Origin: Alphaproteobacteria bacterium MarineAlpha9_Bin7
GTDB taxonomy: Bacteria; Pseudomonadota; Alphaproteobacteria; UBA7887
Direction of reading: 5' to 3'
DNA: 45,983 bases
Assembly: GCA_002938115.1 (NCBI GenBank)
Contig: PTKD01000001.1
Coordinates: forward strand, 1-45,983
The notes under the pieces were generated by a model, which saw only the letters and a list, made by a program, of their open reading frames with translations, searched no databases and was not told the origin of the DNA. The translations under genes were made by a program, and so were the position numbers. Shown piece by piece: positions 1 through 35,356 of this stretch (its first letter is position 1; every line of letters begins with the position of its first letter).

Positions 1-302
1 CTACCAAGTTAACGGGCTGTGTTGGCCCTGGCGATATGCCGCCTTCGCGACGTAGTAGGGGATGCACCCGGAATGAGGATTTTATTTTCTTGCAACAGTA
101 AAGCAGATTGGCGCCAGTTGCGTATTGAATCTTCGAAGATTTTATAGGTTATATTATTTGTTTCTTGGAGGAAGTAGGAAAACCAGCGGCGTGATATAGT
201 GTAGCACTACTTTATTGTAGACGTGGTCAACGTTCCATATTTTTGGACAAGTCAAAATAAGTGGGATGACCATGAGCCCTGATACCAAGAAATGGTGTTC
301 AT

Positions 303-1151
303 ATGAGTGCTAATGGAGCCAGAAAGACTGCCGTCATCACCGGTGCAGCAGGCGGTATTGGCCGTATGCTTGTGTTGGCTGCACTTGACGCCGGCTATCG
401 AGTTGCTTTGCTTGATCGTGACAGGGATGGCCTGGATCGGGTCTGTGCCGAGGTGGTGGAGCCAAATCGACGAAATTGCGTATTGGCCTACCCGACTGAT
501 GTTGCTCGGGAAGAAGATTGCGTGGAGGCCGTGAAGCACGCGGCCGGAGAGTTCGGGGAGATTAGTGCACTAGTAAACGCAGCCGGTATTGGGATGGTCG
601 TAATAAGAGATTCTCACATGGTTGAGCCAGTGCGTTTTGATGAGGTCAGCGTGGAACACTGGGATCATTTTTTTGCCATAAACACCAAAGCCCCCTTTCT
701 GATGGCCAAGGCAGTATTGCCCTATCTTATCGAGTCTGGTTGGGGGCGTATCGTAAATGTGACCACCAGCATGGACACCATGCATCGGGCCGGTTTCTGT
801 CCGTATGGCCCGTCCAAGGCGGCACTTGAGGCAGCGACTGCCATCTGGGCGCAAGAGCTCAACGGGACCGGGGTGACCGTCAACGTTTTAACGCCAGGCG
901 GCCCCACGGACACGGCAATGCTTGGCCAAAAACTGCCTTTCTCTCGCAGTACTATGATAAAACCTGCCGTAATGAAGGCGCCGCTGAAATGGCTTTTGTC
1001 GCGCCATTCTGACGGTGTGAACGGGCGCCGATTTATCGGACGGTACTGGGATCCAAAATTGCCAGCTGACTTAGCCGCAGATGCTGCTGGCGGGCCGGCT
1101 GCTTGGCCGGGGGCCGGGCAGGCTGGAGTATGGCCAACCACGGATGAATGA
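303..1151 (+). CDS. SDR-family NAD(P)-dependent oxidoreductase
   Basis: 282-aa ORF with ATG start. It has the N-terminal dinucleotide-binding motif TGAAGGIG and a catalytic YxxxK (YGPSK), both typical of short-chain dehydrogenases. Confidence 0.85.
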   Translation: MSANGARKTAVITGAAGGIGRMLVLAALDAGYRVALLDRDRDGLDRVCAEVVEPNRRNCVLAYPTDVAREEDCVEAVKHAAGEFGEISALVNAAGIGMVVIRDSHMVEPVRFDEVSVEHWDHFFAINTKAPFLMAKAVLPYLIESGWGRIVNVTTSMDTMHRAGFCPYGPSKAALEAATAIWAQELNGTGVTVNVLTPGGPTDTAMLGQKLPFSRSTMIKPAVMKAPLKWLLSRHSDGVNGRRFIGRYWDPKLPADLAADAAGGPAAWPGAGQAGVWPTTDE

Positions 1152-1205
1152 AGGGCGTCGTGACCGCTTTTTGTATGAGTTGTAAGGCAACGGGGGATTG
1201 GAGAT

Positions 1206-1697
1206 ATGGATATTGAGTCCGCGAGGGGTCGGGCTGTCGTCGTGCAGCCAGAGGAGGGGCCATCCTATTGGCAACCGGTACCCGCAAATGGTTTCAGCAC
1301 AATCAAATTGACACAAGAAAACACTGGGTGCGATGTTCTCTCGTCTGGTTTTCAGACGATTGCTGCAGGTGGTCGTGTACGCGCTCATTCGCATGCCGAT
1401 CAGATTGAATTGCAGATATGCTTTCAGGGTAAAGGTACGGTCGTAGTTGCCGATCAGGAACACCCGCTATGTGCAGGCACCACTTGCTTTTTGGGTCCTG
1501 GCGTTCGCCACGAAATCATAAATGAATCTAGTACTGAGCTAGTTATGTTGTGGGTAATTGCTCCGCCCGGGTTGGATAATTTTTTTGCCGAGATAGGCCG
1601 CGTCAGGCAACCGGGTGAGATGACCCCAGAACCTTTCCCGCGGTCTGCCGATATTCGCTCAATAGAGCAGGAGAGTGGCTTTCGCGACGTAGAATAG
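1206..1697 (+). CDS. cupin domain protein
   Basis: 163-aa ORF preceded by GGAG. Both cupin motifs are visible (GGRVRAHSHADQIE and GPGVRHEIIN). Confidence 0.75.
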   Translation: MDIESARGRAVVVQPEEGPSYWQPVPANGFSTIKLTQENTGCDVLSSGFQTIAAGGRVRAHSHADQIELQICFQGKGTVVVADQEHPLCAGTTCFLGPGVRHEIINESSTELVMLWVIAPPGLDNFFAEIGRVRQPGEMTPEPFPRSADIRSIEQESGFRDVE

Positions 1698-1724
1698 GAA
1701 GTTGTCAACTTTTTTGCTGCAAAA

Positions 1725-2855
1725 CTACCTGCTTAATTTATGTCCCTTGGCTTTGGCTGTCGGGGCATGCTCCGGGAAGAGTGCCTGTAATCCCGACGCA
1801 GAAGCCTCGGAAACCCCGCGTTCTGTTATCAGGCCGCTAATTAAGCGGGCCGGCGTGACGTCAAAGGCGTAATTAGCGGCGTTGGTGCCGTCAGGTGTGA
1901 GTTGGACCGTGGCCAACGACCCATCCACGTTTCGCCCGGTGATATGCGTCACTTCACGGATGGCACGCTGCTCGATGGGTATTTCATTTAAACCATCGCT
2001 TATCGACCAATCGATGGTAGATGACGGCAATGCAACATAGAATGGTATGTCGTTATCCGTTGCTGCTAGAGCCTTTAAGTAAGTCCCAACTTTGTTCGCC
2101 ACATCTCCCTTGGCAGTTGTTCGGTCGGTGCCAACAATACATAAATCTACCTCTCCTTTTTGCATGAGATGACCACCTGCATTGTCGGCAATGACGGTGT
2201 GGGGAACGCCGTGCTGGCCTAGTTCAAAAGCTGTCAAAGCTGCACCTTGATTCCGTGGCCGAGTTTCATCAACCCAAACATGAATTAACAAACCAGCGTT
2301 GTGGGCCGCGTATATGGGAGCCGTTGCGGTGCCCCAGTCGACGGTTGCAAGCCAACCAGCATTGCAGTGAGTGAGAATGTTGATTGGTTTTCCCATCGGT
2401 TTGCGGTCCGAAATTGTTACAAGAAGCCCAAACCCATGGCGTCCAATGGCCTGGTTTGTTTCGATGTCTGCAGTACACATATTGGATGCATGGGTGTATG
2501 CAGTGTCGACACGAAATTTTCCTTCGATATTGCGGAGTACTCGCCGCATTTCGTGAATCGCCCATCGCAGATTTATCGCAGTTGGCCGAGTGTGTTCAAG
2601 CAGCTCGCATACTCGATCCAAACCGCCATCCGATGCGTCTTCGCGCATGCCAAGGCAGATCCCGTATGCCGCAGTGGCACCAATTAGCGGAGCGCCGCGC
2701 ACCATCATAGTGCTGATGGCTCTTGCGGCGTCGTCTGCTGTTTCTAGTGTGCTGATCTTGAAGTTGTGTGGCAATTGGGTTTGGTCGATGACGTTGACGC
2801 GCCACCCATCGTCCCCGACCCAAATAGTGCGATACTGCGTGCCATTCACTTTCAT
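1725..2855 (-). CDS. mtnA: S-methyl-5-thioribose-1-phosphate isomerase-like protein (eIF-2B alpha/beta/delta-related family)
   Basis: 376-aa ORF. The segments [23 protein letters not shown] and [18 protein letters not shown] match the MtnA family as I remember it. Its ATG overlaps the stop of the upstream glucan synthase gene (ATGA at 2852-2855). Confidence 0.8.
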
Positions 2856-5560
2856 GCGCTGGCTTTCTTTGGTGAGCTAGTGCTGGCGGTTGTCGATTTT
2901 TTATACGTGTGCACGTCTTTCTCTACAAAACCTTCGTCGATATGGTCGCGGGCGGTGGTCCAATTTTCAGTGGCGTTGTTGGCGGTCATCCATAATGCTG
3001 CCATATAAGGGATCGCCTGTATTGTTAAAATTAACAACCACAAACCGTTGGCAGGCTCGGTTATATCGCAGCGCAAGAAATAACCTACGGATACGACCAC
3101 AATTAAGAGGAGTAAGGCGGATTCCGTTGCGACCATTTTAAATGCCTCGCGCAGGCCGATATTAGATACATCCTTCGGGGTTCTTCGAAAAGGTGTACCG
3201 CTTGTTATTAAGCCGCTCAGGACAGCACGGGCTACGGTATGGCTGAGCGCTAGCCCTGCCAATGCTGCTCGACACCGGTCTGCCTTGGTGCAATTCAATC
3301 GCATTGAGTAAAGCGCGTAACTGCACGCCTGTTTTGCCAGGAAGATGAACAGAACTGGTACTAAGAATATTGCCGGTGGAGTCGGAAACTGAGCGGACAT
3401 TGTTGTCATCACAACGGTCCAAACCAATGCGCTGATGGTGAAGAGGAGGCCGCCTGCATCCGCGAGCCAAGGAAGCCAGCCAGCAATGAAATGGTAACGT
3501 TGGGCTGGACTTAGCTGGCAAGGACGTAATCCGAGCAAGGCTAGACCGTGGTGCTTAAGAATTTGCATGGCGCCGTAAACCCATCGAAAACGTTGGCTTT
3601 TGTATGCGCCAAAGTCATTGGGCAATTGTCCTCGGCCGAATGAATGGGGTACGTAAGCTGAATGCCAGCCGGACTCAAGTAGGCGAAGCCCTAATTCGGC
3701 GTCTTCTGTGATACACCATTCACCCCAGCCACCGACGCGCTCGAGCGCCATTTTTCGAATTAGGGTCATTGTGCCGTGCTGTATAATGGCGTCGGCTTCG
3801 TTACGTTGCACCATGCCTATCTGAAAAAACCCTGCGTATTCCCAAAAGCATTTTCGTTTGAAGTTGTTGAGGTGAGGCGACAAGTGGTCTTGCGGGGCTT
3901 GTACTAACGCTATGGATTCATCTTCAAATAGAGGGACAAGTGTGCGTAACCAGTCCGGTTCCACTACATAGTCGCTATCCACTACGGCAATAATTTCGGC
4001 TCTATTGTCGGCAAATTCGTGAGCTAGATTTAGTGCGCCGGCCTTAAAGCCCGGGCAATGATCGCGGTGAATAAAACGAAACCGAGACCCTAGATGTGCG
4101 CAGGCGGATTCAATTGGGCGCCAGCGGCTTGGGTATCGGCAATTATTGCTTATCACAATCACTTCAAAATTTGGATATTCAAGGCCAGACAAGGAAGTGA
4201 GGGTTCGTACTACAATTTCGGGTGGTTCATCGCTGCATGGTACATGTATGGAGACGAACGGAGCATGCGCCAGGGGTGAGGAACTGGTGTTATGAAACCG
4301 GCGCTGTGGCTTACGCCAAGCAACGTTAGCAACCTGGACGAGATCAGAAATGAAAAGCGCATACAATATCCATTGGCTGATTATGAGGATTAGCCAGATT
4401 GTCAAACCAAGTGGGCTCAAATAGTAGTCTGTGAGCATCATTGATGGGCACAACATCGCCGCCACGCAACCTTGGAAACAAATTCCAATCAACAGTGCTT
4501 GTTGTATGGATATCTTTGGAAAATACTGCAGATAAATTGTCTGAATGGTTCCGCCTATAACAAGCGCAAAGAGTGCCCAATAGGCCCAGTTGGTGCGCTC
4601 CCTCACGGGGCCAATCAGCTCCCATTTAGGGTTCCGGCGAGAATCAAATATCCCCCAGTGTGCACCCACCCTGCCTTCTATGGCTGTTTTCCAGGGTTGG
4701 TCATAAGCTTCAAGTAACACGTAGTCGATATTGTTTTCTTCGGCATAGGAAAGAAAATTGCGAACAAAATAGGCTTGATTGGTACGGGAAGGTTTTGCAC
4801 CTCCGATGCGCCTACCCGCCGAGGGCCAACCGACTTCTGTTAGCACAATCGGTTTGTCTGGATACGCTTCCCGCAGCTGTTGTAGGCGGTGATCGATGTA
4901 CGGGATTGCTTGGTTGACCGGAACACCTTCCCAATAGGGCAAAATGTGCACCGCAAGAAAATCTGTGGCGGCAGCCAGCATCGGATGGTCAAGCCAAATA
5001 TGCCAGGGCTCCGCAGTGCTCACAGGTTTTCTGGTGGCAGCACGTACCAGTCTGATGTGGCTTCGAAGTGTATCTGGTGTAACTGAGTTGCGGAGTAGTG
5101 CCTCATTCCCGACCAGTACGCGTGTAACATTTTCTTGCCCTTGTGCAAGCCCAATCAGAGCTGAAAGTTCACCTCTATCGTGTTCCGGATCCACCCCAAT
5201 CCAAGCGCCAGCCAACACTTGAATGCCCATATCGGCCGCTTGTTCAGCAAGATCGAGCATAGGCCCCTGCATACTATATGTTCGGATCAGGTTGGTGATA
5301 CCAGCCAGCTGCCGGGTGTCACGGGCAACCGTGGACGCTTGCGGTAGCGTGTCGGTAGGGCTTTGATGATGTTCGTAGGGGCTGTAGGCAATCCCGCCAA
5401 TCGGTCCATTCCAACTTGGAAAGAAATTTGGAGGATTGAATGTGAACCACAAGATGAAGCTGGCTACCGCAGGCAGTAAAACGGCGACACCATTCTTTAT
5501 GACTTTGTGGCTCGGTGTGGAGCAGCGCCCGTTGTGAGGATTTGCGTGTCGGGAAGGCAC
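2852..5560 (-). CDS. NdvB-type bifunctional beta-1,3-glucan synthase (GH17-like domain fused to a processive GT2 domain, multi-pass membrane protein)
   Basis: 902-aa ORF. The N-terminal TM helix is followed by a GH17-like domain with the VGNEAL and LTEVGWPS glutamate contexts. A hydrophobic multi-TM block follows, then a GT2 domain ([34 protein letters not shown] = QxxRW) and C-terminal TM helices. Confidence 0.8.
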
Positions 5561-5564
5561 TTCG

Positions 5565-7181
5565 CTATTGCCTTATTGCTTGCCAACTCGAATCAAAGCT
5601 TTGCAGCAAAAGCGTGTGTAATTCGTCTAATCGGCCGAGTGCCGGTCGTGCCGGGCGGAGCCCTCTTTGGAAACCGGAAATTGTGAATGGCTCCAAAAGA
5701 GCTTCATCACGCACAAAAATATGCACCGGTGTGACCCAACGCGCATCCGCGCCAGCCACCAATGAAGGAGGTTGGTGGTCGCCGACCGCGATGACGATGG
5801 GATTTTGATCAGCGGTTATTCGCAGAAGACCACCCAGTAACTCTAGGTCATACTTTATTGCTGTGGTGTAGGCAGGTTGAAAATTGCTCCAGTCAAGGGA
5901 GTTCTGTAACGCATTTGAGAGCGTTTCCTCCTCATAGGGTGTAGACGAGAGTACGCGCCACCAGTCGGATTGGTAGGGAGGCATTGGGGCGAATGGCATG
6001 TGGCTACTAATAGTAGCGAAGAAAGTAAAGAGTGGGCGTCGATTTCTCTTGTGACCCTCGGCTCGGTAGAATTGGGCAAAACTATATTGGTCTGGTATTT
6101 CCCACCAACCAAAGGCAGGACCCCGATATTTAAGTGAAGCGGCGTCCCAGATTTTGTTGTAGTTATAAAATGCGCCCTCAGGCCATGCCATCTTTAGTCC
6201 CGGCATCAACGCAACCGCGCGATACCCTGCATTTTGGAAATATTTTGCAAGCGTTTGGCGATCGGTGGTTAGCAAAAGTTGATACTCATGTTGCGTAGTA
6301 ATCCAGGTCCCAGTCATCAGTGTGGCATGTGAGAGCCATGAGGCGCCGCCGAACGTTGGGCTCTCATACAGAGCCGTTACTGCATGCCAGCCATCTTTCT
6401 CTACGTTCTTTGCAAGGGCATCAATAGATGGTGCCAGTGCTTTGTCATGGTCCAACGTGTCAAAAACTACTGCCCCGTACGACTCGAGGAAAATCAGATA
6501 GGCATCCTTACCTTCGAGTCGAGAAAGATCGGAACTTAGGTTCGGTTGTGCCGCAAACTGATCATTTACTGAGTGGCCCGTGACGGCATCGTAAATAAAA
6601 TTCAACTGACGGATGTAGGTCAAGCTCACTGGAACTGAGAACCATCTTTCGGTGGTGATTGTCCGACTCGTCATCCCAACGACATAAAGCGTCAATGCCG
6701 ACGCTGCCAAGCCGATTAGGCTGGCGCGCAGTAACGGTTTTTCTGTAGCTTTGATGATTACGGTTATTGCCCACCAAAGGCCAAAGAATAAAGCGGTGAT
6801 ACCAACGATGATGCCCAGCACAATAGTGACGATTAACCACAATTCGTTGGCATCTAAGATCATTAACGCCACTCGCGGAAAGTGTTTTGCATCCCAGTAG
6901 AGGTTGATAGGGCGACCGTACAGGGCGGGCGCTATCACATCAGCGTATCGGCCAAGAGCCAGTATTACGAACGTTATCGCCATAATTTGCTGAGCACGCA
7001 CTTGCGTGCCTCCAAACCAAGTGCGTCGTACAGCAAGGAGCAGTAAAATCGCTGACATCTCCACCGATAATTCCGGCCTGAGCTGAATCCACGGCGTAGG
7101 CCAAACGTTATGAAAACTTAGTGAGAAATTTAGCGCTGACACAGCAAAAAGCACCAAGAACGCTTGCAACCAACCAAACAT
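5565..7181 (-). CDS. membrane-anchored sulfatase/LTA-synthase-like (alkaline phosphatase superfamily) phosphotransferase
   Basis: 538-aa ORF. About 5 N-terminal TM helices precede a soluble domain with motifs typical of LtaS/OpgB/EptA-type enzymes (LIFLESYG, TISSHMPF, AVGDHQP). It ends 4 nt upstream of the glucan synthase start. Confidence 0.7.
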   Translation of the reverse strand: MFGWLQAFLVLFAVSALNFSLSFHNVWPTPWIQLRPELSVEMSAILLLLAVRRTWFGGTQVRAQQIMAITFVILALGRYADVIAPALYGRPINLYWDAKHFPRVALMILDANELWLIVTIVLGIIVGITALFFGLWWAITVIIKATEKPLLRASLIGLAASALTLYVVGMTSRTITTERWFSVPVSLTYIRQLNFIYDAVTGHSVNDQFAAQPNLSSDLSRLEGKDAYLIFLESYGAVVFDTLDHDKALAPSIDALAKNVEKDGWHAVTALYESPTFGGASWLSHATLMTGTWITTQHEYQLLLTTDRQTLAKYFQNAGYRAVALMPGLKMAWPEGAFYNYNKIWDAASLKYRGPAFGWWEIPDQYSFAQFYRAEGHKRNRRPLFTFFATISSHMPFAPMPPYQSDWWRVLSSTPYEEETLSNALQNSLDWSNFQPAYTTAIKYDLELLGGLLRITADQNPIVIAVGDHQPPSLVAGADARWVTPVHIFVRDEALLEPFTISGFQRGLRPARPALGRLDELHTLLLQSFDSSWQAIRQ

Positions 7182-7213
7182 ATCAGGTCAATTCGGCTGT
7201 TTTCTCGGGGTCG

Positions 7214-7825
7214 CTATTGTTGGACCGCTTCAAGTTCGATGATCAATTGGATTTCATCTCCCACCCACCCGTTGGCTACCGCATAATTCATATCGTAGGA
7301 GCTGCGCCGAAAGGAGCCACGTGCTGAAATGCCGATGGTGTACTTCTTGTGACCGAATGGGTAGATCCCACTTTTGTTCCAGGTTATATCTAGGTTCATG
7401 GGCAGAGTTTTTCCGGTGAGCGTTAAAAGTCCGTTTACTATGCCAGTACGCTCCCCGGTTCGTTTACTTGAGGTGCTAGAAAAGGTCATCTCCGGAAATT
7501 CTCGGACATTTAAAAAGTCAGCGCTACGTAGATGATCATCTCGTTTTTTGTGGTTTGTGAATAGGCTATCAGTATGGATCAGCACGTTGAGTTCTGATAG
7601 CAACAAAGAATCTTCATCGAAAATAAATTGGCCTTCTGCTTTCCGAAACATGCCAAGTATTTTTGCGTAACCAATATGCTCAACTAAAAAACCGATACTG
7701 AAGTGATCTGAGTCAATAATATATTCGGCTGGCGCCGCTTGTGGTTGGCTGAGTCTTATGCCTAAAAGAAAAGCCGCGGTGATTGTGCAAGCGGCTAAGG
7801 TGAAAAATCGATTGATTGCACTCAT
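7214..7825 (-). CDS. YceI-like periplasmic (polyisoprenoid-binding family) protein
   Basis: 203-aa ORF with a signal-peptide-like N-terminus. The YceI-like pattern is present: IDSDHFSIGFLVEH...GMFRK..G.F.FDE ... RDDHLRSADFLNVREFPEMTF. Its start overlaps the upstream stop (ATGA at 7822-7825). Confidence 0.8.
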   Translation of the reverse strand: MSAINRFFTLAACTITAAFLLGIRLSQPQAAPAEYIIDSDHFSIGFLVEHIGYAKILGMFRKAEGQFIFDEDSLLLSELNVLIHTDSLFTNHKKRDDHLRSADFLNVREFPEMTFSSTSSKRTGERTGIVNGLLTLTGKTLPMNLDITWNKSGIYPFGHKKYTIGISARGSFRRSSYDMNYAVANGWVGDEIQLIIELEAVQQ

Positions 7826-8592
7826 AAGGAATCTCCCGTCGGGGAAGTGGTAGTGAGTAGGAAAAATATATCTCGTCCAAATGATATAATTAGAAAACTC
7901 AGTGCAACACCGTTGACGCTACTGGCCGTAAATGGTTCTACGATGGGGCAAAGGGCAAATAATAGTGCCATGGATTGAGTTGCACATGCTGCCTGGCGAA
8001 GTCGGCTTGGCGGCAAGGATCGTCGAAGTGCGTGCACGGGCCAACTTGCGATCATGAACAGATAACGCATGACGCCTGCTAGCAACACCCAGGCGCCTAC
8101 TTTGTCGTATTCCCAAACAAGTACAGCGAGGATCAAAATAAACGCAGCATCAACCTCCATATCAAAGCCCGCGCCAAAAGCACTTTGTATGTTTAACCGA
8201 CGGGCGATCCAGCCATCGATCCCATCGAATACAAAAGCCGTTGCCGCAAGCGATAGTAACAACCACAAGCCTGCGTCGGTGATCATTGAAGAATGTCCAA
8301 CTACGCCTGCAAAAAGAGCTACTATAACAGCGCGGGCGAGCGTGATGCGATTCGCCGCTCCAAATTCTTTTCGTGGAACGTGGTGCCGCAGTTGAATCAA
8401 CACCAATATACTTATCGCCGCGTACACCCCAAGAGCTTGAAATAAGGATTGTAAAGGGAGGCCCCATAGAAACTGGAATGCGTGAACTCCTGCAAACAAT
8501 GCCACCATACCGAGGCCAAAGTTTGCAAGAGTGCCTGCGTTGGGCGAGTACAGCACTGAAAATATGACCCAGTTTCTTGTTAAGAGTGGCAA
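7822..8592 (-). CDS. CDP-alcohol phosphatidyltransferase family protein (substrate unknown)
   Basis: 256-aa polytopic ORF. It carries a perfect DG(x)2AR(x)8G(x)3D(x)3D signature: DGWIARRLNIQSAFGAGFDMEVD. Confidence 0.8.
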   Translation of the reverse strand: MPLLTRNWVIFSVLYSPNAGTLANFGLGMVALFAGVHAFQFLWGLPLQSLFQALGVYAAISILVLIQLRHHVPRKEFGAANRITLARAVIVALFAGVVGHSSMITDAGLWLLLSLAATAFVFDGIDGWIARRLNIQSAFGAGFDMEVDAAFILILAVLVWEYDKVGAWVLLAGVMRYLFMIASWPVHALRRSLPPSRLRQAACATQSMALLFALCPIVEPFTASSVNGVALSFLIISFGRDIFFLLTTTSPTGDSL

Positions 8593-8663
8593 AGTAGCTC
8601 CAATCCCAGTTAAGGGCGACTAACATGCCGCTTATTTTGCTCCGAAGACAAGAGTTAGTGGCT

Positions 8664-8698
8664 ACTGTGACAGTGTGATTCGTCGACGCTGATCGACG
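8664..8698. promoter_or_regulatory. two short palindromes in the divergent intergenic region (candidate operator sites)
   Basis: ACTGT-G-ACAGT lies at 8664-8674. CGTCGA-N6-TCGACG lies at 8681-8698. Both sit in the roughly 113-125 bp spacer between the divergent 7822-8592 and 8718-9743 genes. Confidence 0.3.
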
Positions 8699-8717
8699 GG
8701 TAACTTTGTGGAGGCAT

Positions 8718-9743
8718 ATGCTTATGAAGAACGAAAATGGCGCCTGGGCGTATTGGGTGCAGGAGCCTGGAAGGAGTAAATTGGTATCCATGTCGTTGGC
8801 GAAGCCAGCGGAACACGAAGTGAGAATTCGAACACTTTATAGCGCTATCAGTTTAGGTACGGAACGACTCGTCTTTTCCGGCGCCGTTCCGGAGAGTCAG
8901 TACGAGTCCATGCGTGCGCCCTTCCAAGACGGAGATTTCCCTGGTCCTGTAAAGTACGGCTACTCAAACGTAGGGCGTGTCGAAGCAGGGCCACAGGAGT
9001 TGATCGGGCGCGTTGTGTTTTGTCTTTATCCGCATCAAGATAATTATGTTGTGCCGCAGGATGCCGTGGTGCCGGTGCCGAAAACAGTGCCTGCAACACG
9101 CGCTGTATTAGCCGCAAATATGGAAACTGCCATCAACGGGTTGTGGGATGTGCCACCAGTCGTTGGTAGCAAGGTCATTGTAGTGGGAGCCGGTGTGTTA
9201 GGATGTTTGATGGCGTATCTTGTGAGCAAGATACCTGGTGTCGAAGTACAGCTGGTCGACATTGATTCGGAAAAAGCATCAGTGGCCAAGGCGTTTGGCA
9301 TTCAGTTCGCTGAACCTGGCTTGGCGTCAAGTGAAGCAGACATGGTAATTCACGCATCCGGTACCTCTGAAGGCCTGGCTACGGCCTTCCAGTTGGCGGG
9401 TTTTGAGGCAACGATTTTAGAGATGAGTTGGTTTGGGAGTCACACTGTTTCCTTGCCTCTGGGTGAATCATTCCATGTGAAAAGATTGCGACTGCAATCC
9501 TCCCAGGTTGGTACTTTGGGAACAACACAACGCGCGCGTTGGGATCGTCGCCGGCGTCTCATTTTAGCACTTGAACTCCTTACTGATGAAATGCTTGACA
9601 AGTTGTTTTCCGGCCAGAGTGACTTTGAAAATTTACCTTCGACGATGGAAAGGCTGATGTTGGAGCCGCAGGGGCACTTATGCCACAGAGTTGTTTATCC
9701 TGGGGCAGATGTGAATGCTTCTTCAGGTGAGGGGGGTGAGTAA
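8718..9743 (+). CDS. MDR-superfamily dehydrogenase, zinc-less BchC-like subgroup
   Basis: The ORF opens at TTG 8706, but ATG 8718 or 8724 follows a GGAGG and is the likelier start. [14 protein letters not shown] and [10 protein letters not shown] replace the Cys and GHE zinc ligands of classic Zn-ADHs, as in BchC-type enzymes. The Rossmann motif VVGAGVLG is present. Confidence 0.7.
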
Positions 9744-10156
9744 TGTACAGTTTATCAGTCCGCGATCATTTTATGGTTGCGCACAGTTTTGATGGAAGAG
9801 TTTTTGGTCCTGCACAAAGATTACACGGCGCGACATACGTGGTTGATTTGGTGTTCAAGCGACGAGAGCTCGACGACAATGGCTTGGTAGTTGATATTGG
9901 ACTAGCTGGCACTGTTTTGCGGGAGGTATTAGACGATTTGAATTATCGCAATCTTGATGATGAGCCCGATTTCTCTGGCTCCAATACTACTACGGAAATG
10001 CTTGCTGGGGTGATTTTTGGGCGAATGCGTCAACGAATTGAGGTGGGAGCACTTGGCCCAGAAGGTTCCACCCTAACTGGAATGTCAGTTACTCTGCATG
10101 AGTCTCATCTGGCGTGGGCGCGTTATGAGGCCGACTTCAGCATTCCAAGCGAATAA
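9743..10156 (+). CDS. COG0720 (6-pyruvoyl-tetrahydropterin synthase / QueD)-like protein with divergent active site
   Basis: 137-aa ORF whose ATG overlaps the upstream TAA (TAATG). The fold signature FMVAHSF ... [11 protein letters not shown] resembles the PTPS/QueD pattern AAH ... CxxxHGH. The Cys and the second His of HGH are replaced. Confidence 0.7.
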
Positions 10157-10208
10157 AGATGCTACTGGGTATAAACCTAAGTTGCCCGATTTCTGAAATG
10201 ATTTCGCG

Positions 10209-11285
10209 TTGGGTGTAGGGTGTGTGGGTGTGCGTTCGCTTCATTTCGTTTTGCCCGGTGATCCTGATGCCCTAACGGGTGGATATATTTACGATAAGCG
10301 CATTATCGATGGATTGCGGAGCAACGGTCGGAAAGTTTACCGTCATTTACTGCCAAATGGTTTCCCGTTCCCCAACGCCCGTACCCTGGAGGAGTCATCA
10401 AGAATTATTCGTAGAATTCCAGACGATAGTCTTGTGGTGGTTGATGGACTTGCGCTGGCGCCTCTGTATCAGCTAATCGGTGAGGAAGCAGCGCGCCTCA
10501 TTTTGATTGGATTGATTCACCACCCGCTTTCCGAGGAAACAGGCATCTCTGCCGCTCAAAACTCCTTTCTTCGAATCCAGGAGCAACGCGCCTTAGCCGC
10601 TTGCGCACACATTGTCGTGACAAGTTCGACCACGGCGTCCACCTTGATCTCGGACTATGATGTTACCCCGCATCGTTTGACAGTGATCGAGCCAGGAGTC
10701 GATCTAGCACCTCTTGCATCGGGATCCTGTGACGACACCCTAAATCTTCTCTGCGTGGCTACCCTAACCCCGCGTAAAGGTCATGAGTTGCTACTCAATG
10801 CTTTAGCGCCGCTGCAGGACTACTCATGGCGAATGTCTTGTGTGGGTGATCTAGAGAGAGATATGGCGACGGCCACCCGAGCACAGCAGTGTGTTACGAG
10901 ACTTGGGCTTGCCGATAGAGTTGTGTTCCACGGAGCACTTGGCCGATCTGAGCTTGCCGAACAATATCACTCTGCCGATCTATTTGTATTGGCTTCGAGA
11001 TACGAGGGTTATGGTATGGCTTTGGCCGAGGCGTTGGCGTGTGGCCTGCCTATTGTGGCCACTTGCGTTGGCGCGGTTCCAATCACTGTGCCGTCCAACG
11101 CAGGTCTATTGGTCCGACCGGACAAGAGTAAGGCGTTGACTTTTGCCCTCAAGAGATTTTTTACGGAGCCAAGGCTCCGTGAACGTTTAAGGGCAGGAGC
11201 TAGGGCTAGCCGGGTGCGACGTAGGTCGTGGGATGTCGCTGTGCGGGGGATGGAAAAGCAGGTATTTGGTTTGTTTATAAAATGA
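10209..11285 (+). CDS. glycosyltransferase, GT4 (group 1) family
   Basis: 358-aa ORF. The true start may be GTG 10230, giving VRSLHFVLPGD. The C-terminal retaining-GT motif is SRYEGYGMALAEALACGLPIVAT (E-x7-E). Confidence 0.8.
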   Translation: MGVGCVGVRSLHFVLPGDPDALTGGYIYDKRIIDGLRSNGRKVYRHLLPNGFPFPNARTLEESSRIIRRIPDDSLVVVDGLALAPLYQLIGEEAARLILIGLIHHPLSEETGISAAQNSFLRIQEQRALAACAHIVVTSSTTASTLISDYDVTPHRLTVIEPGVDLAPLASGSCDDTLNLLCVATLTPRKGHELLLNALAPLQDYSWRMSCVGDLERDMATATRAQQCVTRLGLADRVVFHGALGRSELAEQYHSADLFVLASRYEGYGMALAEALACGLPIVATCVGAVPITVPSNAGLLVRPDKSKALTFALKRFFTEPRLRERLRAGARASRVRRRSWDVAVRGMEKQVFGLFIK

Positions 11286-12148
11286 ACGGTTTTTCCGCGG
11301 CATGGCTAGATTTGCGGGAGCCCGCCGATGTAGCGGCCCGTGCACCCGAGCTATTAGAGAGGCTAAGCGAGTGGTCGGGTCAACACGAGCACGTTACTGT
11401 GGCTGATCTTGGTTCAGGAACAGGGAGTTGCTTGCGTGCGATTGCGCCGCACATGAGTCCGCGTCAGAGTTGGCGGCTAATAGACCGTTCAGGTGTGCTG
11501 CTGGACGAGGCCGTGACGCGCCTCTCGAAGTGGGCGCATCAGAGATCATTGTCGGCCCGAGTGGAGCAAAATGTCTGGCGATTTATGGGAAAGATTTCAG
11601 ACTATTCTGTTGTGTTTGAGGAACAAGATCTGGCAACTGGACCTGGCAATACTGGATCCGTGGTTGATCTTGTTACTGTTTCTGCGGTGCTTGATTTGGT
11701 GTCGAAGGAATGGTGCAGTAATTTAGCACGGTGGTGTTCAGAAAAAGGTGCTGCTTTGTACACCTGCCTGAATTATGACGGGCAATTCCATTTTGCTCCG
11801 TCGCATCCTGATGATTCAGATGTGCGTAGCGTGGTCAATACACACCAGCGAAGCGATAAAGGAATGGGTCCGGCACTTGGTTCTAGCGCGATTGAGGTGT
11901 TGGCTGAAGCGTTGTCGGCAGCGAAATATCAATTCGTAGTTGCACCTAGTCCGTGGCTGCTCGGGTCGGATAACAGTGCTTTGCAGTCGGCTTTAGTTAG
12001 AGATTGGAGCGACTTAGTTTTTCGGCAAGGAGATAAGTACGCGGCACGAGTGTCCAGGTGGAGAAATTTTCGGATGGCCGCAATCAAAGCCCGTCAATCG
12101 CATCTGAGTGTAGGCCACGTAGATCTCTGGGCGTGGCCCAAAGCATGA
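11282..12148 (+). CDS. class I SAM-dependent methyltransferase
   Basis: The internal ATG at 11282 overlaps the GT4 stop (ATGA). SAM-binding motif I is VADLGSGTGSCL. Confidence 0.75.
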   Translation: MNGFSAAWLDLREPADVAARAPELLERLSEWSGQHEHVTVADLGSGTGSCLRAIAPHMSPRQSWRLIDRSGVLLDEAVTRLSKWAHQRSLSARVEQNVWRFMGKISDYSVVFEEQDLATGPGNTGSVVDLVTVSAVLDLVSKEWCSNLARWCSEKGAALYTCLNYDGQFHFAPSHPDDSDVRSVVNTHQRSDKGMGPALGSSAIEVLAEALSAAKYQFVVAPSPWLLGSDNSALQSALVRDWSDLVFRQGDKYAARVSRWRNFRMAAIKARQSHLSVGHVDLWAWPKA

Positions 12149-12172
12149 TAGGCGCATTCTAGAGTATTCGAT

Positions 12173-13006
12173 TTAGAGAACGTCCTCGGAAAGTGTGCAA
12201 TCGAACAAAATGTCGTTTCCTAGACGAAATTGGCGGGAATTTGGACGAAATGCCTTGTTAGCTTTCGTAGCTGCACGCAATCGAAGGCCTGGTTGACCGG
12301 CGCCAAAAAGCACCGGTGCAATAGTGATTTGGAGGCGGTCTACGGCGCCTGCTCTTACAAAGCGTGAAACAGTATCTCCGCCGCCTTCAATAAAAAGACG
12401 TTTTAGGCCGAGAGTGCACAACGCGTCTATACACGCGCTTGCGGGTAGGTTCTGTGTTTTGGAGGGCACTACCACGATTTCTACATGATTGCCCATGCGA
12501 CTGTGATTGTTTTTGGCACTTGAAGCGCAAAGTACCAAGGTGCGTGCTGACGGATCCCTGAATAATGCATGCTGTGACTGAAGCCGGCGCCTGGGATCTA
12601 TAACCACTCGGACTGGGTTGGCCCCCGGAACATGTCGTGTTGTAAGTTGTGGATCATCGTGACGTACGGTGTTCGCGCCAACTATAACTGCGTCAAATAA
12701 AGCGCGCATGCGATGCAGGTGAATAATATTTTCTGTCCCCGTGACGTAGTGAGAGTCTCCACTAGCGGTTGCGATGAAACCGTCCAGACTTTGGCCAAGG
12801 TGTGCGACCACAAGTTTAGAACTTTTTGGTCCACCAACTAGCGGCGAATAGAGATCGAGTAATTGGACGGCATCGTCGGATAAAGGATGTGAACAGTGCC
12901 AAACGCCTAGGCCATCAATCTTGATCATACTCGAAGTGTTGTTGAGAAGTTTGCCGCAAACTGACGACCACGCGACATCGGTGTCAATTATCGGATCAGC
13001 GTTCAT
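12173..13006 (-). CDS. RibD C-terminal domain (pyrimidine reductase / DHFR-like fold) protein without a deaminase domain
   Basis: Motifs GQSLDGFIATASGDSHYVTG, VGANTVRHDDPQLTTR and IEGGGDTV fit RibD_C. The start is either ATG 13006 or 13042, and both overlap the end of the upstream creatininase-family gene. Confidence 0.75.
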   Translation of the reverse strand: MNADPIIDTDVAWSSVCGKLLNNTSSMIKIDGLGVWHCSHPLSDDAVQLLDLYSPLVGGPKSSKLVVAHLGQSLDGFIATASGDSHYVTGTENIIHLHRMRALFDAVIVGANTVRHDDPQLTTRHVPGANPVRVVIDPRRRLQSQHALFRDPSARTLVLCASSAKNNHSRMGNHVEIVVVPSKTQNLPASACIDALCTLGLKRLFIEGGGDTVSRFVRAGAVDRLQITIAPVLFGAGQPGLRLRAATKANKAFRPNSRQFRLGNDILFDCTLSEDVL

Positions 13007-13829
13007 CTTGTAAATCGGTAAGCGGGAACCGTGCCATATCATCTAGGATAAAGATTAATTCATTCACCATGTGTTCTATGGTGGTCTCTCCCCGTTTTGC
13101 ATCGGCACGTGCAGCGTTTCCGCATGCGCCAGATTTGTGCAAGTCTTGTGCCTGCCATGCAAATCGTGCTGGGCCATTTGGTGCAATTCGATTGTATGGT
13201 TTGTCCAGCCTTATCGTGTTTGGTACGAAATTTTGCGCATGCTCCATGCGCACAGATTCAGGGCGCAAATGAAGCATCATTGATGTTTCTACCTCTCCCG
13301 CGTGCAACCCGTAACGGAGCTCGTCGTCGCTGAAAAGGCCCGACGGCGCGCCCAGTCGGAACGTGTCTGTGCCGACTACGAGCAGTTGATTTTTTGCACG
13401 TAAACGCTGTGCCACGATGTCAACGATCTGTGGCTGGCCACCATGGCTATTAAGAATCAGTATTTTTCGAATCCCTGTTTTACATACTTGTTCGCCGATT
13501 TGGACCCATAGCTTAATGAGGGTCTCCGCAGTTGCAGTTAATGTACCTGGGAAATCGCTGTGCTCGCTGCTTTCGCCAATTAACATTGGTGGGAGCGCCA
13601 AAAGAGTTAAGGTTTTGGGCGTTTTTGCTATGAGGTCGCGGACTATGCCCTCACTGATGCAGGTATCGGTATCAAGTGGCAGATGGGGACCATGTTGTTC
13701 AATAGCAGAGACAGGTAAAAGTGCAATTGTTCGTGCGGGTTCCAAAATCATAAAATCATTGGTCGTGAGATCCCGCCAATAACCGCTGGAGAGCACGGTT
13801 AGATATTTGTCTCTCGGATTTCCGACCAT
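12996..13829 (-). CDS. creatininase-family metal-dependent amidohydrolase
   Basis: 277-aa ORF. The family metal and catalytic motifs appear intact: SAIEQHGPHLPLDTD, LNSHGGQ, HAGEVETS. Confidence 0.8.
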   Translation of the reverse strand: MVGNPRDKYLTVLSSGYWRDLTTNDFMILEPARTIALLPVSAIEQHGPHLPLDTDTCISEGIVRDLIAKTPKTLTLLALPPMLIGESSEHSDFPGTLTATAETLIKLWVQIGEQVCKTGIRKILILNSHGGQPQIVDIVAQRLRAKNQLLVVGTDTFRLGAPSGLFSDDELRYGLHAGEVETSMMLHLRPESVRMEHAQNFVPNTIRLDKPYNRIAPNGPARFAWQAQDLHKSGACGNAARADAKRGETTIEHMVNELIFILDDMARFPLTDLQDER

Positions 13830-17274: not shown

Positions 17275-18006
17275 TTATCCCGTATTTTTGCAATCCGCTT
17301 CGTAGCATTTTCTAAAATAATTGATCAGCAGGCCCGGTAGCAGGTCCATTTCGAAAAAGGGTTCTGCGCCAGCCTGAGACAAAGAGTGCGCAAGATCGGA
17401 GGACGCATGTTCGGCACCCGAGTAGCCAAATACCTTCATGCCGGCGGCTCGCGCGCCGGTGACGCCAGGCACGCTGTCCTCTATCACTACGCAGGCATGA
17501 GGTCTGATATCGAACTGAAGTGCAGCATGCAGAAATAAATCGGGATATGGCTTTCCACGGCGCACTTGCTGAGTGCTAAATAGTGCGTCTCCAAAGTGGT
17601 GTCGCAGTCCTGTTACAGTCAATGAAAGTTGAATTTTTTCAGGAGCACCTGATGACGCAACGCATTTCGGGAACAGGATCCGGTCGAGAGCCCCACTAAT
17701 CCCAGAAACTGGCTCGAGGTGTTTGCGAAAAGCTGCATAGGTCTCGGCACGAAGGCGTTCGCAAAAACCATCTGAAAGTTTTCGACCCAAGTCCCCTTCT
17801 ACCTGATCAATTATCGAGGCCAGATCTCGGCCCACAAAGCGCAAGATGGATTCTTCAAAAGTACATGGGTACCCCTCATGGGTTAGCGCTCTCGCCAATA
17901 TACGATTTGCAATAGGCTCCGAGTTTACAAGCACACCATCACAATCAAAAATTACCAGAGCGGAATTCCTCGGAAGCGTTCCGACTGAGTCGGTGACGTT
18001 TGTCAC
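17275..18006 (-). CDS. HAD-IA family hydrolase/phosphatase
   Basis: 243-aa ORF. Motif I is VIFDCDGVLVNSE and the late motif is VIEDSVPGV. Its GTG start overlaps the msrP stop (GTGA). Confidence 0.8.
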   Translation of the reverse strand: MTNVTDSVGTLPRNSALVIFDCDGVLVNSEPIANRILARALTHEGYPCTFEESILRFVGRDLASIIDQVEGDLGRKLSDGFCERLRAETYAAFRKHLEPVSGISGALDRILFPKCVASSGAPEKIQLSLTVTGLRHHFGDALFSTQQVRRGKPYPDLFLHAALQFDIRPHACVVIEDSVPGVTGARAAGMKVFGYSGAEHASSDLAHSLSQAGAEPFFEMDLLPGLLINYFRKCYEADCKNTG

Positions 18007-18983
18007 ATATAGAGGCTTTCGTTCTTTAGGTCCGCGTACAGATGCGCCACAAATTCGCCGTACCCGTTGTAGAGCTGGGTGGGGATACGCTCATTAGAGC
18101 CCAACATTTTTTCTGTCGACTGGCTCCAGCGTGGGTGCGGGATCTGTGGATTGACATTGGCCCAGAACCCGTATTCTTTGCTCGCAATTTCTTGCCAAAA
18201 GTTCACTGGACGTTCATCCGTGAAGGTAAATTGTTGTATCGATTTGATCGATTTGAAGCCGTACTTCCAGGGCACAATTAGTCGCAGTGGGGCGCCGTTC
18301 TGGTGGGGCAGGGGTTTGCCATACGCGCCGACTACGAGCATCGACATCTCATTAACCGCTTCGTTTATTGTTAAGCCCTCCACATAAGGCCATGGCAACC
18401 ATGTTTGGCGCTGGCCTGGGGCGATGTCTGGCAAATGAAAACCGGTCATTTTTAAGTACTTTGCTCCGCTCAGTGGTCTAGCCATATCAACGAGAGATTT
18501 TAACGGAAACCCAGTCCATGGCACCGCAATCGACCAGGCTTCAACACAACGATGGCGAAGCAGACGCTCTTCAAGACCCATCTTCTGAATTAACTCGTCG
18601 GCACCAAGTGTGATGGGTTTTTCAACTAACCCGTCCAGACGTAACTGCCATGGTCGAAGAGGCAGTTGCATCGCGCTTTTCCAAACATTTTTATGAGAGC
18701 CAAATTCAAAAAAATTGTTGTAAGTGGTTACGAGATGTTCTGGAGTTAGCGGACGATCCAACACATAACGATCGTTGGTGGGTGCGGGAAAAAGATTAGA
18801 GAGGGGACCTTCGGCAGCATATCCTGTAGACACGCAGAGTTTCTTTCCCAGGCTGATTCCTGTCGTGCCTAGCAGTGTTCCCGCGGCAGCGCGCTTGGCA
18901 AAATCACGGCGGTTCCAGAAAATTGTTTCCGGAGTTGCCTTGTGTTCGGGTAAAAACCAGCCTGGCGTTGTTTTTACGAGCAT
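18003..18983 (-). CDS. msrP: protein-methionine-sulfoxide reductase catalytic subunit (YedY/MsrP, sulfite-oxidase-fold molybdoenzyme)
   Basis: 326-aa ORF. It has a twin-arginine signal (NRRDFAKRAAAG) and the conserved HRCVEAWS and LIVPWKYGFKSIK segments of YedY-type enzymes. Confidence 0.85.
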   Translation of the reverse strand: MLVKTTPGWFLPEHKATPETIFWNRRDFAKRAAAGTLLGTTGISLGKKLCVSTGYAAEGPLSNLFPAPTNDRYVLDRPLTPEHLVTTYNNFFEFGSHKNVWKSAMQLPLRPWQLRLDGLVEKPITLGADELIQKMGLEERLLRHRCVEAWSIAVPWTGFPLKSLVDMARPLSGAKYLKMTGFHLPDIAPGQRQTWLPWPYVEGLTINEAVNEMSMLVVGAYGKPLPHQNGAPLRLIVPWKYGFKSIKSIQQFTFTDERPVNFWQEIASKEYGFWANVNPQIPHPRWSQSTEKMLGSNERIPTQLYNGYGEFVAHLYADLKNESLYM

Positions 18984-27539: not shown

Positions 27540-29507
27540 TTGACGGGACCTCTCTTGGGATTGATATTTGATATCGTGAACATAGCACGGAGCGAGCGAA
27601 AGGGGCATCCGGAAGTGGTTGTTGCTGGAGGTCAGGAGCAAGATATCGTCGGCGTGGAAGTGATCCGCAGGAACGTTGGCACTCTGCCAAGCCAGCCTGG
27701 GGTATATCGAATGCTCGATGCGCGTGGAAAGGCACTTTATGTCGGGAAAGCCCGAAATCTCAAGCGAAGGGTATCTAGTTATGCGAGGGGAGCGTCTCAT
27801 GGTGGTCGTATCGCTCAGATGGTTTGCCAAATCAGCACCCTTGAAATCATCACTACTCACACTGAGGCAGAGGCACTCTTACTTGAGGCGAATCTGATAA
27901 AGAAATTAAAGCCACGCTATAACGTTGTCCTGAGGGATGATAAATCACATCCATATATTTTACTTTCTGGCGACCACGCTTGGCCCAAATTGGTCAAACA
28001 TCGTGGTGCTCGATCACGCAAAGGGGAGTATTTTGGCCCCTTCGCGTCGGCTGGTGCCGTTAACCGTACTTTAAATGCCCTGCAACGCGCGTTTCCCTTG
28101 CGAACTTGCTCCGACAGCGTGTTCTCAAATCGATCGCGCCCGTGCTTGCAATATCAGATTAAGCGGTGCACAGCACCGTGCGTAGATTACATCTCTCGCG
28201 AAGAATACGCGTATTTGGTCGGAGAAACACGAGACTTTCTTTCAGGCAAAAGCGCTAAGGTAGCTAACGGCCTCGCTGCTCGTATGCAGGAAGCCGGCGA
28301 GCAACTTGAATTTGAGACTGCATCTATTCTGAGGGACCGGATTCGTGCGCTTGCCCACATACAATCACATCAGGGTATTAACGTTAGGTCAGTTGATGAT
28401 GCGGATGTGATAGCAGTGGATCAACAGGCTGGACAAACTTGTATCCAAGTATTCTTTTTCAGGGGAGGCAGTAATTATGGCAATCGCGCCCATTTCCCCA
28501 CACACCACCGGGAGAATTCGGTTGCCGAAGTCCTGGGGCCCTTTGTCGGTCAATTTTACGAAGGCCGCAACGCTCCCAAGAGTGTGCTTTTAAGCCACGA
28601 TATTGAACATGTGAAGCTTGTCGAAGAGGCTCTGAACATACAGAGTAGTCACCGGGTGCGATTGCTTGTTCCGCGCCGCGGTGAAAAGCGTCGACTCGTC
28701 CAGCACGCCTTAACAAATGCTCGTCATGCTCTGGACCGTAGGCTGTCGGAGAGCGCTTCGCAACGACGTTTGCTGGAAGGCTTGGCCGAGACCTTGGAGC
28801 TAGACTTTCCGCCGAATCGTATAGAGGTTTATGACAATAGCCATACCTCCGGCTCCCAGGCCGTAGGTGCCATGATCGTTGCAGGTTTGGGTGGGCTGAC
28901 TAAGAATGCGTACCGAAAATTTAATATTCGCGTCGATTCTAAACCTGGAAGTGGTGCCGAGATCAAACCTGGTGATGACTATGGCATGATGCGACAGGTG
29001 CTTACGAGGCGGTTCGCGCGTTTGCAAAAAGAGGATCCAGATCGCACCGATAAGCAGTGGCCGGACTTGGTGCTGGTCGATGGAGGTGCGGGGCAGCTTT
29101 CGGTCGCGGGCGAGGAGTTTGCGGATTTGGGCGTTCGTGATGTGGCCCTAGCTGCGGTAGCTAAGGGTCCCGAGCGAGCTGCTGGACGTGAACGTATCTA
29201 CCTTCCGGGACGTGCTCCAATAATGCTACCCCCCTCAGATCCGGTGCTTTATTTTCTACAGCGTTTACGAGATGAGGCTCATCGCTTCGCGATAGGGACG
29301 CATCGAACCCGACGTTCGCGTGATCTCCGGCGCTCTGAGCTGGACGAAATTCTGGGCGTCGGGTCAAAAAGGAAACGTGCACTTTTGCATCGTTTTGGCT
29401 CGGTTAGAGCAGTTGCGGATGCGGGGTTGCAAGATCTTCAGGAGGTAGTTGGCATTAACCACAAGGTAGCGCAACTGATATACAATCATTTTCACAGCAA
29501 TGACTGA
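27540..29507 (+). CDS. uvrC: excinuclease ABC subunit C
   Basis: GIY-YIG domain ([29 protein letters not shown]), UVR domain ([16 protein letters not shown]) and a C-terminal HhH region. The exact start is uncertain; TTG 27540 is the earliest option. Confidence 0.95.
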
Positions 29508-29576
29508 GCTCTGCACATGCGGAGCTTTTTGCCACGCAATAAACTCTTTTTTTATGAGGTGCGCGACTACACCACT

Positions 29577-35062: not shown

Positions 35063-35272
35063 CTATTGCAATGCGACTTCGCCATCGATTTCAAGATCAA
35101 GTGTAGTACCTTTCAAAGTAATCCGGGCCTTGGCGGTGAGGGTTTCATCACCTTTGAGTTGGCCATTAGCAATTCCTTCTAGGACCGCCCGTTCGATTTC
35201 CCGTTGGGCCGTAATGCCAAGTTTTTTAAGGAATTTCCGCACGTTCATATTGAAAGATTCTTCATTCATCAT
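35063..35272 (-). CDS. small conserved-looking hypothetical protein (69 aa)
   Basis: ATG-initiated ORF with balanced, non-repetitive composition (MMNEESFNMNVRKFLKKLGITAQREIERAV...). It fills the gap between Fe-ADH and ccmA. Confidence 0.5.
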   Translation of the reverse strand: MMNEESFNMNVRKFLKKLGITAQREIERAVLEGIANGQLKGDETLTAKARITLKGTTLDLEIDGEVALQ

Positions 35273-35356
35273 TTTATCCTTTCTTTGTTAACGCCTGGTC
35301 CGATGCCAACTGCTATGCTAAGCGAACACCATGCACGTGTGGCGCAAAATAATCCA

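Follow-up and report, generated by a model that had tools for sequence, protein, structure and literature searches.

What joint task, if any, is served by five consecutive minus-strand genes, one of which encodes an NdvB-type β-1,3-glucan synthase, is the question raised by positions 1725 to 8592 of a contig from Alphaproteobacteria bacterium MarineAlpha9_Bin7. The whole stretch analysed (the window, 45,983 nt) is contig C1 of a metagenome-assembled genome (MAG; 1.7 Mb, 70% complete), the nearest named relatives of which are marine "Rhodospirillaceae / MarineAlpha9" MAGs. According to the listing of open reading frames (ORFs) and direct reading of the strand, the genes encode, in the order of reading, a CDP-alcohol phosphotransferase (CDP-OH) paralog, a YceI-family protein, a membrane enzyme of the AlkP superfamily that is termed S here, the NdvB synthase and the isomerase MtnA. 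A preliminary description of this DNA took NdvB as the centre of the operon and the other four products as its companions. The tight packing is exactly as described there, with ATGA overlaps at 7825-7822 (CDP-OH/YceI) and 2855-2852 (ndvB/mtnA) and gaps of 32 nt at 7213-7182 (YceI/S) and 4 nt at 5564-5561 (S/ndvB). The idea of an operon built around NdvB did not survive comparison with other genomes. The locus is a lineage-specific join of the NdvB synthase, two or three genes of an orphan cluster and an ordinary methionine-salvage gene, and S is the hub gene that connects ndvB to the orphan cluster.

Species-representative genomes were scanned with a profile for S, which is present in at least 590 species of the Alpha-, Beta- and Gammaproteobacteria and the Acidobacteriota, and the 80 best loci were analysed. 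The orphan cluster comprises genes for a RibD_C-type reductase, an S-adenosylmethionine (SAM) methyltransferase, a GT4 glycosyltransferase, a PTPS-IV protein and an MDR dehydrogenase, the last being the first gene of what is called module A below; they are oriented divergently to CDP-OH and S and, in some cases, YceI. It is found in the same proteobacterial classes and in Acidobacteriota, often in genomes without NdvB. Peristeroidobacter agariperforans KA5-B, Thiocystis violacea DSM 208, Thiorhodococcus minor DSM 11518 and T. mannitoliphagus DSM 18266 are cultivable carriers of the cluster that encode NdvB at another place in the genome. Module A, CDP-OH and S, with or without YceI, stand together and lack ndvB in 34 of the 80 loci, about 13 have S and ndvB with neither CDP-OH nor module A nearby, and everything is found together in five; the conserved unit is thus usually free of ndvB. 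The latter adjoins S in 20 loci; S directly precedes it on the same strand in 16 of them, the two genes converge in the other four, and the spacing between the two genes is near zero in 16 loci. In a tree of S, obtained by a quick IQ-TREE run with the careful search unfinished, ndvB-linked and cluster-linked members interleave, well-supported branches force at least three switches, and the link to ndvB appears in at least three well-supported separate clades. This interleaving led to the rejection of a division of S into two separate paralog families, one for each context.

The dependence of S on the cluster is also seen where the two are apart. All 20 genomes in which S lies away from the cluster encode a homolog of the ADH-like dehydrogenase, and module A, CDP-OH and RibD_C are intact elsewhere in all 12 regions fetched from them; RibD_C is present in 44 of the 80 loci as well as in these 12 relocated clusters. 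Typical copies of the MDR dehydrogenase share 46-60% identity across phyla, divergent versions 29-34%, and a gammaproteobacterial clade carries a divergent version of module A. Class-wide co-occurrence was assessed in 401 evenly sampled genomes, with NdvB in 79, PTPS-IV in 41 and S in 22. PTPS-IV accompanies S in 21 of the 22 S-positive genomes, compared with 20 of the 379 others (Fisher p 1e-22, uncorrected for phylogeny). This co-occurrence and the intact relocated modules indicate that S depends on module A. Among the PTPS-IV genomes without S, all 12 that were fetched have module A with no CDP-OH gene nearby, which identifies CDP-OH and S as an add-on pair.

S itself is hardly accessible to family searches. 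Its match to PF00884 (sulfatase/AlkP) lies exactly at the cutoff with 25.0 bits, no NCBIfam family was matched, and neither phmmer nor a 32-sequence profile retrieved a relative from the PDB, the sole profile match being encapsulin with an E-value of 0.17. An AF2 model (pLDDT 86) shows helices at residues 2-171, about five of them N-terminal, followed by an alpha/beta domain at residues 227-538. The top Foldseek matches of this model are LtaP/LtaS, full-length MCR-1, PbgA, EptC and GacH, with E-values of 3e-9 to 1e-5. All of 32 homologs compared retain E233, T276, H394 and D468-H469, which may, judged by their pattern rather than by a residue-level superposition, correspond to the metal ligands and the threonine nucleophile of LtaS and EptA. 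S is accordingly modelled as an enzyme that would act like the lipid-head-group transferases while forming a separate family, its catalysis being predicted. At locus L135 (G101:C1, ~2469633-2472725), a distant homolog of S (29% identity) and the dehydrogenase of module A are immediate neighbours in divergent orientation, with no detectable CDP-OH gene in between; the locus may differ in architecture or have a CDP-OH that has diverged very far.

The partner of S at the head of the minus-strand operon carries the intact CDP-alcohol phosphotransferase signature D-x2-DG-x2-AR-x8-G-x3-D-x3-D (DGIDGWIARRLNIQSAFGAGFDMEVD) and matches PF01066 with 63.6 bits (cutoff 22). It falls far below the cutoffs of the NCBIfam equivalogs PgsA, PssA, Pcs and ClsA, with PgsA giving the best score of 31.7 bits (cutoff 109). 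The housekeeping pgsA gene is found at 29517-30143 on the plus strand, directly after uvrC (27540-29507), and passes the PgsA cutoff with 139.8 bits. The two proteins are alike only in the region of the signature motif, and by these sequence criteria the cluster CDP-OH is a dedicated paralog rather than the housekeeping PgsA. Because the association with PTPS-IV genes is obligate, the donor head group is probably not glycerol, in which the system would differ from the PgsA pathway. CDP-OH and S also occur as natural fusions. In the metagenomic proteins P0226 and P0211 both are joined in one chain, P0226 matching the window CDP-OH with residues 24-203 (E 4e-33) and S with residues 224-744 (E 8e-148). 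Three further single open frames of this kind occur in species representatives from two phyla, and fusions are found in at least two independent lineages. They indicate that CDP-OH and S act together.

The third gene shared with the cluster, yceI, encodes a protein with an export signal (a hydrophobic N-terminus with an AXA-type site), which scores 139.8 bits against the NCBIfam equivalog PRK03757, below its cutoff of 232. YceI is present in 20 of the 80 loci, and in L123, L124 and L128 it stands beside module A without CDP-OH or S. The preliminary description had listed a phosphotransferase-like enzyme, a lipid-headgroup transferase and a YceI-type periplasmic binding protein as flanking NdvB. 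Its interpretation is supported in part, by the LtaS/EptA/MCR-1-like fold of S with five transmembrane (TM) helices and by the genuine linkage of CDP-OH to S. The role as NdvB accessories is not supported, as S and CDP-OH belong to the orphan cluster and YceI is an optional accessory of it.

An alternative is that S is an OpgB/OpgE-like enzyme that draws on bulk membrane phospholipid and adds phosphoglycerol or phosphoethanolamine from it to the NdvB glucan, with CDP-OH and the PTPS-IV genes merely adjacent and serving another purpose. The glucans made by NdvB in Pseudomonas aeruginosa are said, from work of Sadovskaya et al. in 2010, to carry phosphoglycerol, S matches phosphoglycerol and phosphoethanolamine transferases in fold, and the loci with S and ndvB alone would suit such an enzyme. 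A membrane MdoB-like enzyme has moreover been expected to substitute NdvB glucans, in a study of 2023 whose authors knew of a single adjacent case, that of Desulfofustis glycolicus DSM 9705 (PMC10237404). There, as in the window, the NdvB gene lies directly beside one for an AlkP/MdoB-like membrane enzyme; as described, ndvB is upstream of the MdoB homolog in D. glycolicus, whereas S is upstream of ndvB here, and the 20 adjacent pairs among the 80 species loci compare with that one example. This alternative is nevertheless considered unlikely. PTPS-IV is present in nearly every genome with S, genomes with S apart from the cluster still keep module A and CDP-OH, the CDP-OH-S fusions arose more than once, and S is absent from 67 of the 79 NdvB genomes (85%).

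The preferred reading is that of a composite, layered envelope-decoration system. Families and catalytic motifs of the genes, the fold of S, the fusions, synteny and co-occurrence are observed, and from them we infer the chemistry of each step as well as topology, donor and acceptor. Module A, RibD_C and the creatininase-family hydrolase encoded beside it would build an alcohol, probably one that is derived from GTP and bears glycosyl and methyl groups. The CDP-OH paralog would attach it to a lipid on the cytoplasmic side and, after flipping, S would take the phospho-head group from the lipid to a periplasmic acceptor, like LtaS, OpgB, GacH and EptA, with YceI possibly handling the lipid donor or a by-product. 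The logic would be the same as in the pathways from PgsA through phosphatidylglycerol to OpgB/MdoB, and in those of LtaS, GacH and EptA/MCR-1, in which the donor lipid comes from a CDP-alcohol transferase and an AlkP-fold enzyme with five TM helices hands its phospho-head group to an acceptor outside the cytoplasm; S differs in having no sequence-detectable similarity to any solved member of these enzymes and no NCBIfam family. Decoration of a periplasmic glucan by a donor lipid and an AlkP-fold transferase is known from the osmoregulated periplasmic glucans of Escherichia coli, and the MdoB-like membrane enzyme expected for NdvB glucans (PMC10237404) would suit the present reading too. As for the acceptor, the ndvB gene appears to have been placed directly behind S here and, independently, in other lineages, which suggests β-1,3-glucan as the acceptor there; in the window it would most likely be the periplasmic β-1,3-glucan made by NdvB. 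To this extent the decorated periplasmic glucan of the preliminary description was a reasonable reading, given the head-group-transferase fold of S and the linked CDP-OH, albeit of a system with a different centre. The proposition that a dedicated CDP-OH paralog loads a lipid with a head group probably derived from GTP and that S transfers this head group in the periplasm, with β-1,3-glucan as the acceptor where ndvB is attached, is regarded as evenly balanced. A more specific version, in which the orphan pathway makes a new phospholipid with a GTP-derived, glycosylated, methylated pyrimidine- or pterin-like head group that S transfers to cyclic β-1,3-glucan, is tentative and on the whole doubtful.

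Several points weigh against this reading. The CDP-OH gene is far away in many S-ndvB loci, so that S could use bulk phospholipid there. NdvB is encoded nowhere in 12 of 20 cluster-bearing genomes, including all five from Acidobacteriota, and glucan therefore cannot be the general acceptor; conversely, the many NdvB genomes without S mean that NdvB does not need it. The topology of S is deduced only from the similarity of its modelled fold, and PTPS-IV is a subfamily without a settled function, for which a review of 2016 cites only unpublished work on F420 (PMC5041015). Some of these points would fit a further alternative, according to which the orphan cluster decorates or builds another envelope component, such as lipopolysaccharide, a lipid end-product or another polymer, and the adjacency of ndvB reflects shared regulation under envelope stress or chance synteny. 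Besides the cluster genomes that lack NdvB, its proponents could cite that S and ndvB are adjacent in only three of the 12 alphaproteobacterial genomes in which they co-occur. Adjacency has however recurred in at least three clades, and hardly any spacing separates the genes in 16 loci, which is far more than chance would give for two particular genes. At the genome level, NdvB is found in 12 of 22 S genomes compared with 67 of 379 others (odds ratio 5.6, p 2e-4), an enrichment read from co-occurrence statistics that ignore kinship and from sampling that consists mostly of MAGs. This further alternative is rated rather improbable.

The synthase to which S has been joined is, judged by its sequence, an intact and ordinary member of its family. 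The preliminary description of a GH17-GT2 fusion is confirmed in that a single polypeptide holds both domains and all catalytic motifs. PF00332 (GH17) is matched at residues 233-315 with 28.8 bits (cutoff 28.2) and PF13641 (GT2) at residues 436-663 with 114 bits. The GH17 catalytic glutamates lie in the motifs VGNE150 and EVGWP242, the processive GT2 motifs are DSD528, TED618 and QRFRW656, and the hydrophobic profile shows an N-terminal anchor and about six further segments. More than 2000 homologs share 40-66% identity with the protein. The combination of PF00332 and PF13641 with this set of motifs defines the NdvB/"Orphan" cyclic β-1,3-glucan synthases (PMC10237404), and the window protein agrees with those of Pseudomonas and Bradyrhizobium in Pfam architecture, in the catalytic motifs of both domains, in the N-terminal anchor and in the TM region flanking GT2. 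The surroundings differ: the pseudomonad gene is an "orphan", syntenic with dapE and with no decorating enzyme nearby, whereas the window gene is coupled to an AlkP-type transferase and a lipid-head-group cluster, and the cyclic nature of its product is a prediction.

Some relatives show variations around ndvB. A second, GH17-only gene stands beside it in L021 (G025:C8, ~35234-36091) and also in G050:C6 and G060:C28; its product is about 37-40% identical to the N-terminal domain of NdvB, the arrangement resembles that of ndvB-ndvC in Bradyrhizobium, and the genome of the window has no such gene. Two copies of ndvB-mtnA, 53% and 56% identical to the window NdvB, are found on contigs C63 and C5 of G005 (L016, L024), a MAG with 6% contamination, and are more likely to stem from a mixed bin than from a duplication. 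In two MAGs of the same genus, G001:C54 (L013) and G003:C5 (L015), the ndvB homologs contain one in-frame stop each (TAG and TGA), which may be an assembly error or pseudogenisation.

On the other side of the intergenic region, the orphan PTPS-IV cluster is present in full at positions 8706-13829, where the plus-strand operon converges on the RibD_C and creatininase-family genes (Table 1). The true start of the dehydrogenase is likely to be ATG 8724. Its gene is joined to that of the PTPS-IV protein by a TAATG overlap. The latter protein is a homolog of SCO6650 with the FGPAQ signature, HGA in place of HGH and no CxxxHGH catalytic/zinc motif. The nearest solved relatives of the GT4 glycosyltransferase are MshA (7qsg, 2e-20), PimB and BshA. 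Its stop codon is overlapped by the start of the next gene through ATGA. The product of this gene gave no matches against Pfam, NCBIfam or the PDB, and a homolog in L025 weakly matches Methyltransf_25; it is a probable SAM methyltransferase on the strength of its motif I and this one homolog. The creatininase-family protein stays below the cutoffs of all NCBIfam equivalogs, and its gene occurs in about 12 related loci. Palindromes in the intergenic spacer were considered as a shared operator, which was not supported, since L031, the closest relative (~90% identical), is the only one to share them.

The SCO6655 paralog in the Streptomyces coelicolor locus forms formylaminopyrimidine from GTP. 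Together with this activity, the families present in the window, namely a pyrimidine reductase (RibD_C), a creatininase/ArfB-type fold and a T-fold protein (PTPS), suggest a GTP-derived head group. FGPAQ is the signature of the PTPS-IV subfamily, and PF01872 (RibD_C) has been noted in PTPS-IV neighbourhoods (PMC5445326). The window agrees with the neighbourhood of SCO6650 (PDB 3D7J) in the close match of the protein, in FGPAQ and in the neighbouring RibD_C gene. Relative to the published PTPS-IV neighbourhood, which consists of PF00925 and RibD_C only, it adds CDP-OH, the AlkP transferase and NdvB, and it lacks a GTP cyclohydrolase II gene of its own: none was found in the window, and the only PF00925 homolog of the genome is located on contig C146. 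A literature search for SCO6650 yielded nothing relevant in searchable open papers.

Table 1. Coordinates of the two divergent operons and their convergent neighbours in the window, with the basis of each assignment.
Feature	Position	Strand	Basis
mtnA, S-methyl-5-thioribose-1-phosphate isomerase, 376 aa	1725..2855	-	NCBIfam equivalogs
NdvB-type GH17-GT2 β-1,3-glucan synthase, 902 aa, GTG start	2852..5560	-	Pfam PF00332 + PF13641/PF13632/PF00535, motifs
S, membrane-anchored AlkP-superfamily phospho-head-group transferase-like enzyme, 538 aa	5565..7181	-	PF00884, fold
YceI-family periplasmic beta-barrel protein, 203 aa, signal peptide	7214..7825	-	PF04264 121 bits
CDP-alcohol phosphotransferase paralog, 256 aa, polytopic, TTG start, first gene of minus-strand operon	7822..8592	-	PF01066
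Divergent intergenic region between the two operons	8593..8723		strand reading
MDR/Zn-ADH-like dehydrogenase, first gene of module A	8706..9743	+	weak Pfam/NCBIfam matches only, e.g. BchC 3.5e-10
PTPS-IV subfamily T-fold protein, SCO6650 homolog	9743..10156	+	PDB 3D7J E 4e-49
GT4 glycosyltransferase	10209..11285	+	PF00534 98 bits
SAM-dependent methyltransferase, probable	11282..12148	+	motif I VADLGSGTGS
RibD_C-type pyrimidine/pterin reductase	12173..13042	-	PF01872 127 bits
Creatininase-family amidohydrolase, occasional cluster member	12996..13829	-	PF02633 226 bits

The five minus-strand genes keep their order and tight spacing in five genomes of the same genus and in one other genus of the family. 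The whole block, from RibD_C and creatininase to mtnA, a cupin and an SDR gene, is conserved in the genus and one further genus. In G011 the block is split, with S and ndvB together and CDP-OH and YceI beside the divergent operon. Only two starts are uncertain, TTG 8592 of the CDP-OH gene and GTG 5560 of ndvB, for which the next in-frame alternative is TTG 5452. Consensus scans of positions 1-10000 returned 11 terminator-like matches (10.2 expected from shuffles) and three promoter-like matches (11.2 expected), neither being an excess, and these background levels provide sequence evidence neither for internal breaks in transcription nor for a single transcript.

The last gene of the run was described earlier as a sugar-phosphate isomerase taking part in the glucan system, and the five genes would then be one dedicated functional unit around NdvB. 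An ATGA overlap links ndvB to mtnA, both in the window and in its closest relatives, and speaks for such a unit, which is nonetheless highly improbable. MtnA is a housekeeping enzyme that scores 195 bits against the IF-2B/MtnA family and exceeds two equivalog cutoffs, with 474 bits against NF004326 (cutoff 271) and 409 bits against TIGR00512 (cutoff 279). Its gene is single-copy in G000 and every relative, relatives without ndvB retain it among unrelated neighbours, and in G011 550 kb separate it from ndvB. It is found in two of the 80 species loci and adjoins ndvB in only two genera, being absent from the ndvB/S loci outside them. The junction with ndvB is a gap of 54-65 nt in relatives of the same genus and of 134 nt in genus g2. 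A servant role of mtnA in the envelope locus was rejected in view of its single copy, its retention without ndvB and the distance in G011; the gene is functionally unrelated to the envelope system, a neighbour by position only, and is probably co-transcribed with the envelope genes. In L145 (G012:C45), a relative of the same family without ndvB, a homolog of the creatininase-family gene (55% identical to that at 12996-13829) lies directly upstream of mtnA, so that mtnA may already have been a neighbour of the PTPS-IV cluster when ndvB joined. Elsewhere in the window, at 17275-18983 on the minus strand, an Oxidored_molyb (MsrP/YedY-like) gene overlaps a HAD hydrolase gene, and no YedZ-like partner was seen among the annotated ORFs of the window.

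The NdvB glucans of P. aeruginosa are tied to the tolerance of biofilms to antibiotics. For the glucan of Bradyrhizobium, the substituent is given as phosphocholine in the part of PMC4881576 that cites Rolin et al. 1992. No enzyme that adds phospho-substituents to NdvB-type β-1,3-glucans was identified in the searchable literature. A search for the gene combination of the window returned nothing relevant in searchable open papers, and searchable papers contain no description of the S family, of its obligate association with PTPS-IV genes and a dedicated CDP-OH paralog or of its recurrent coupling to NdvB. The window locus and about 20 similar species loci name a concrete candidate transferase family for the substitution of NdvB glucans. 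At the same time, the orphan PTPS-IV/CDP-OH/AlkP cluster, present in hundreds of species of several phyla, gains its first candidate acceptor, and the link to NdvB turns a cluster that could not be annotated into a testable hypothesis. If the proposal is correct, a pterin- or pyrimidine-like head group on a glucan would represent a new class of glucan substituent, and the pathway would be a new lipid-carrier route for the export of a cytoplasmic metabolite to the periplasm.

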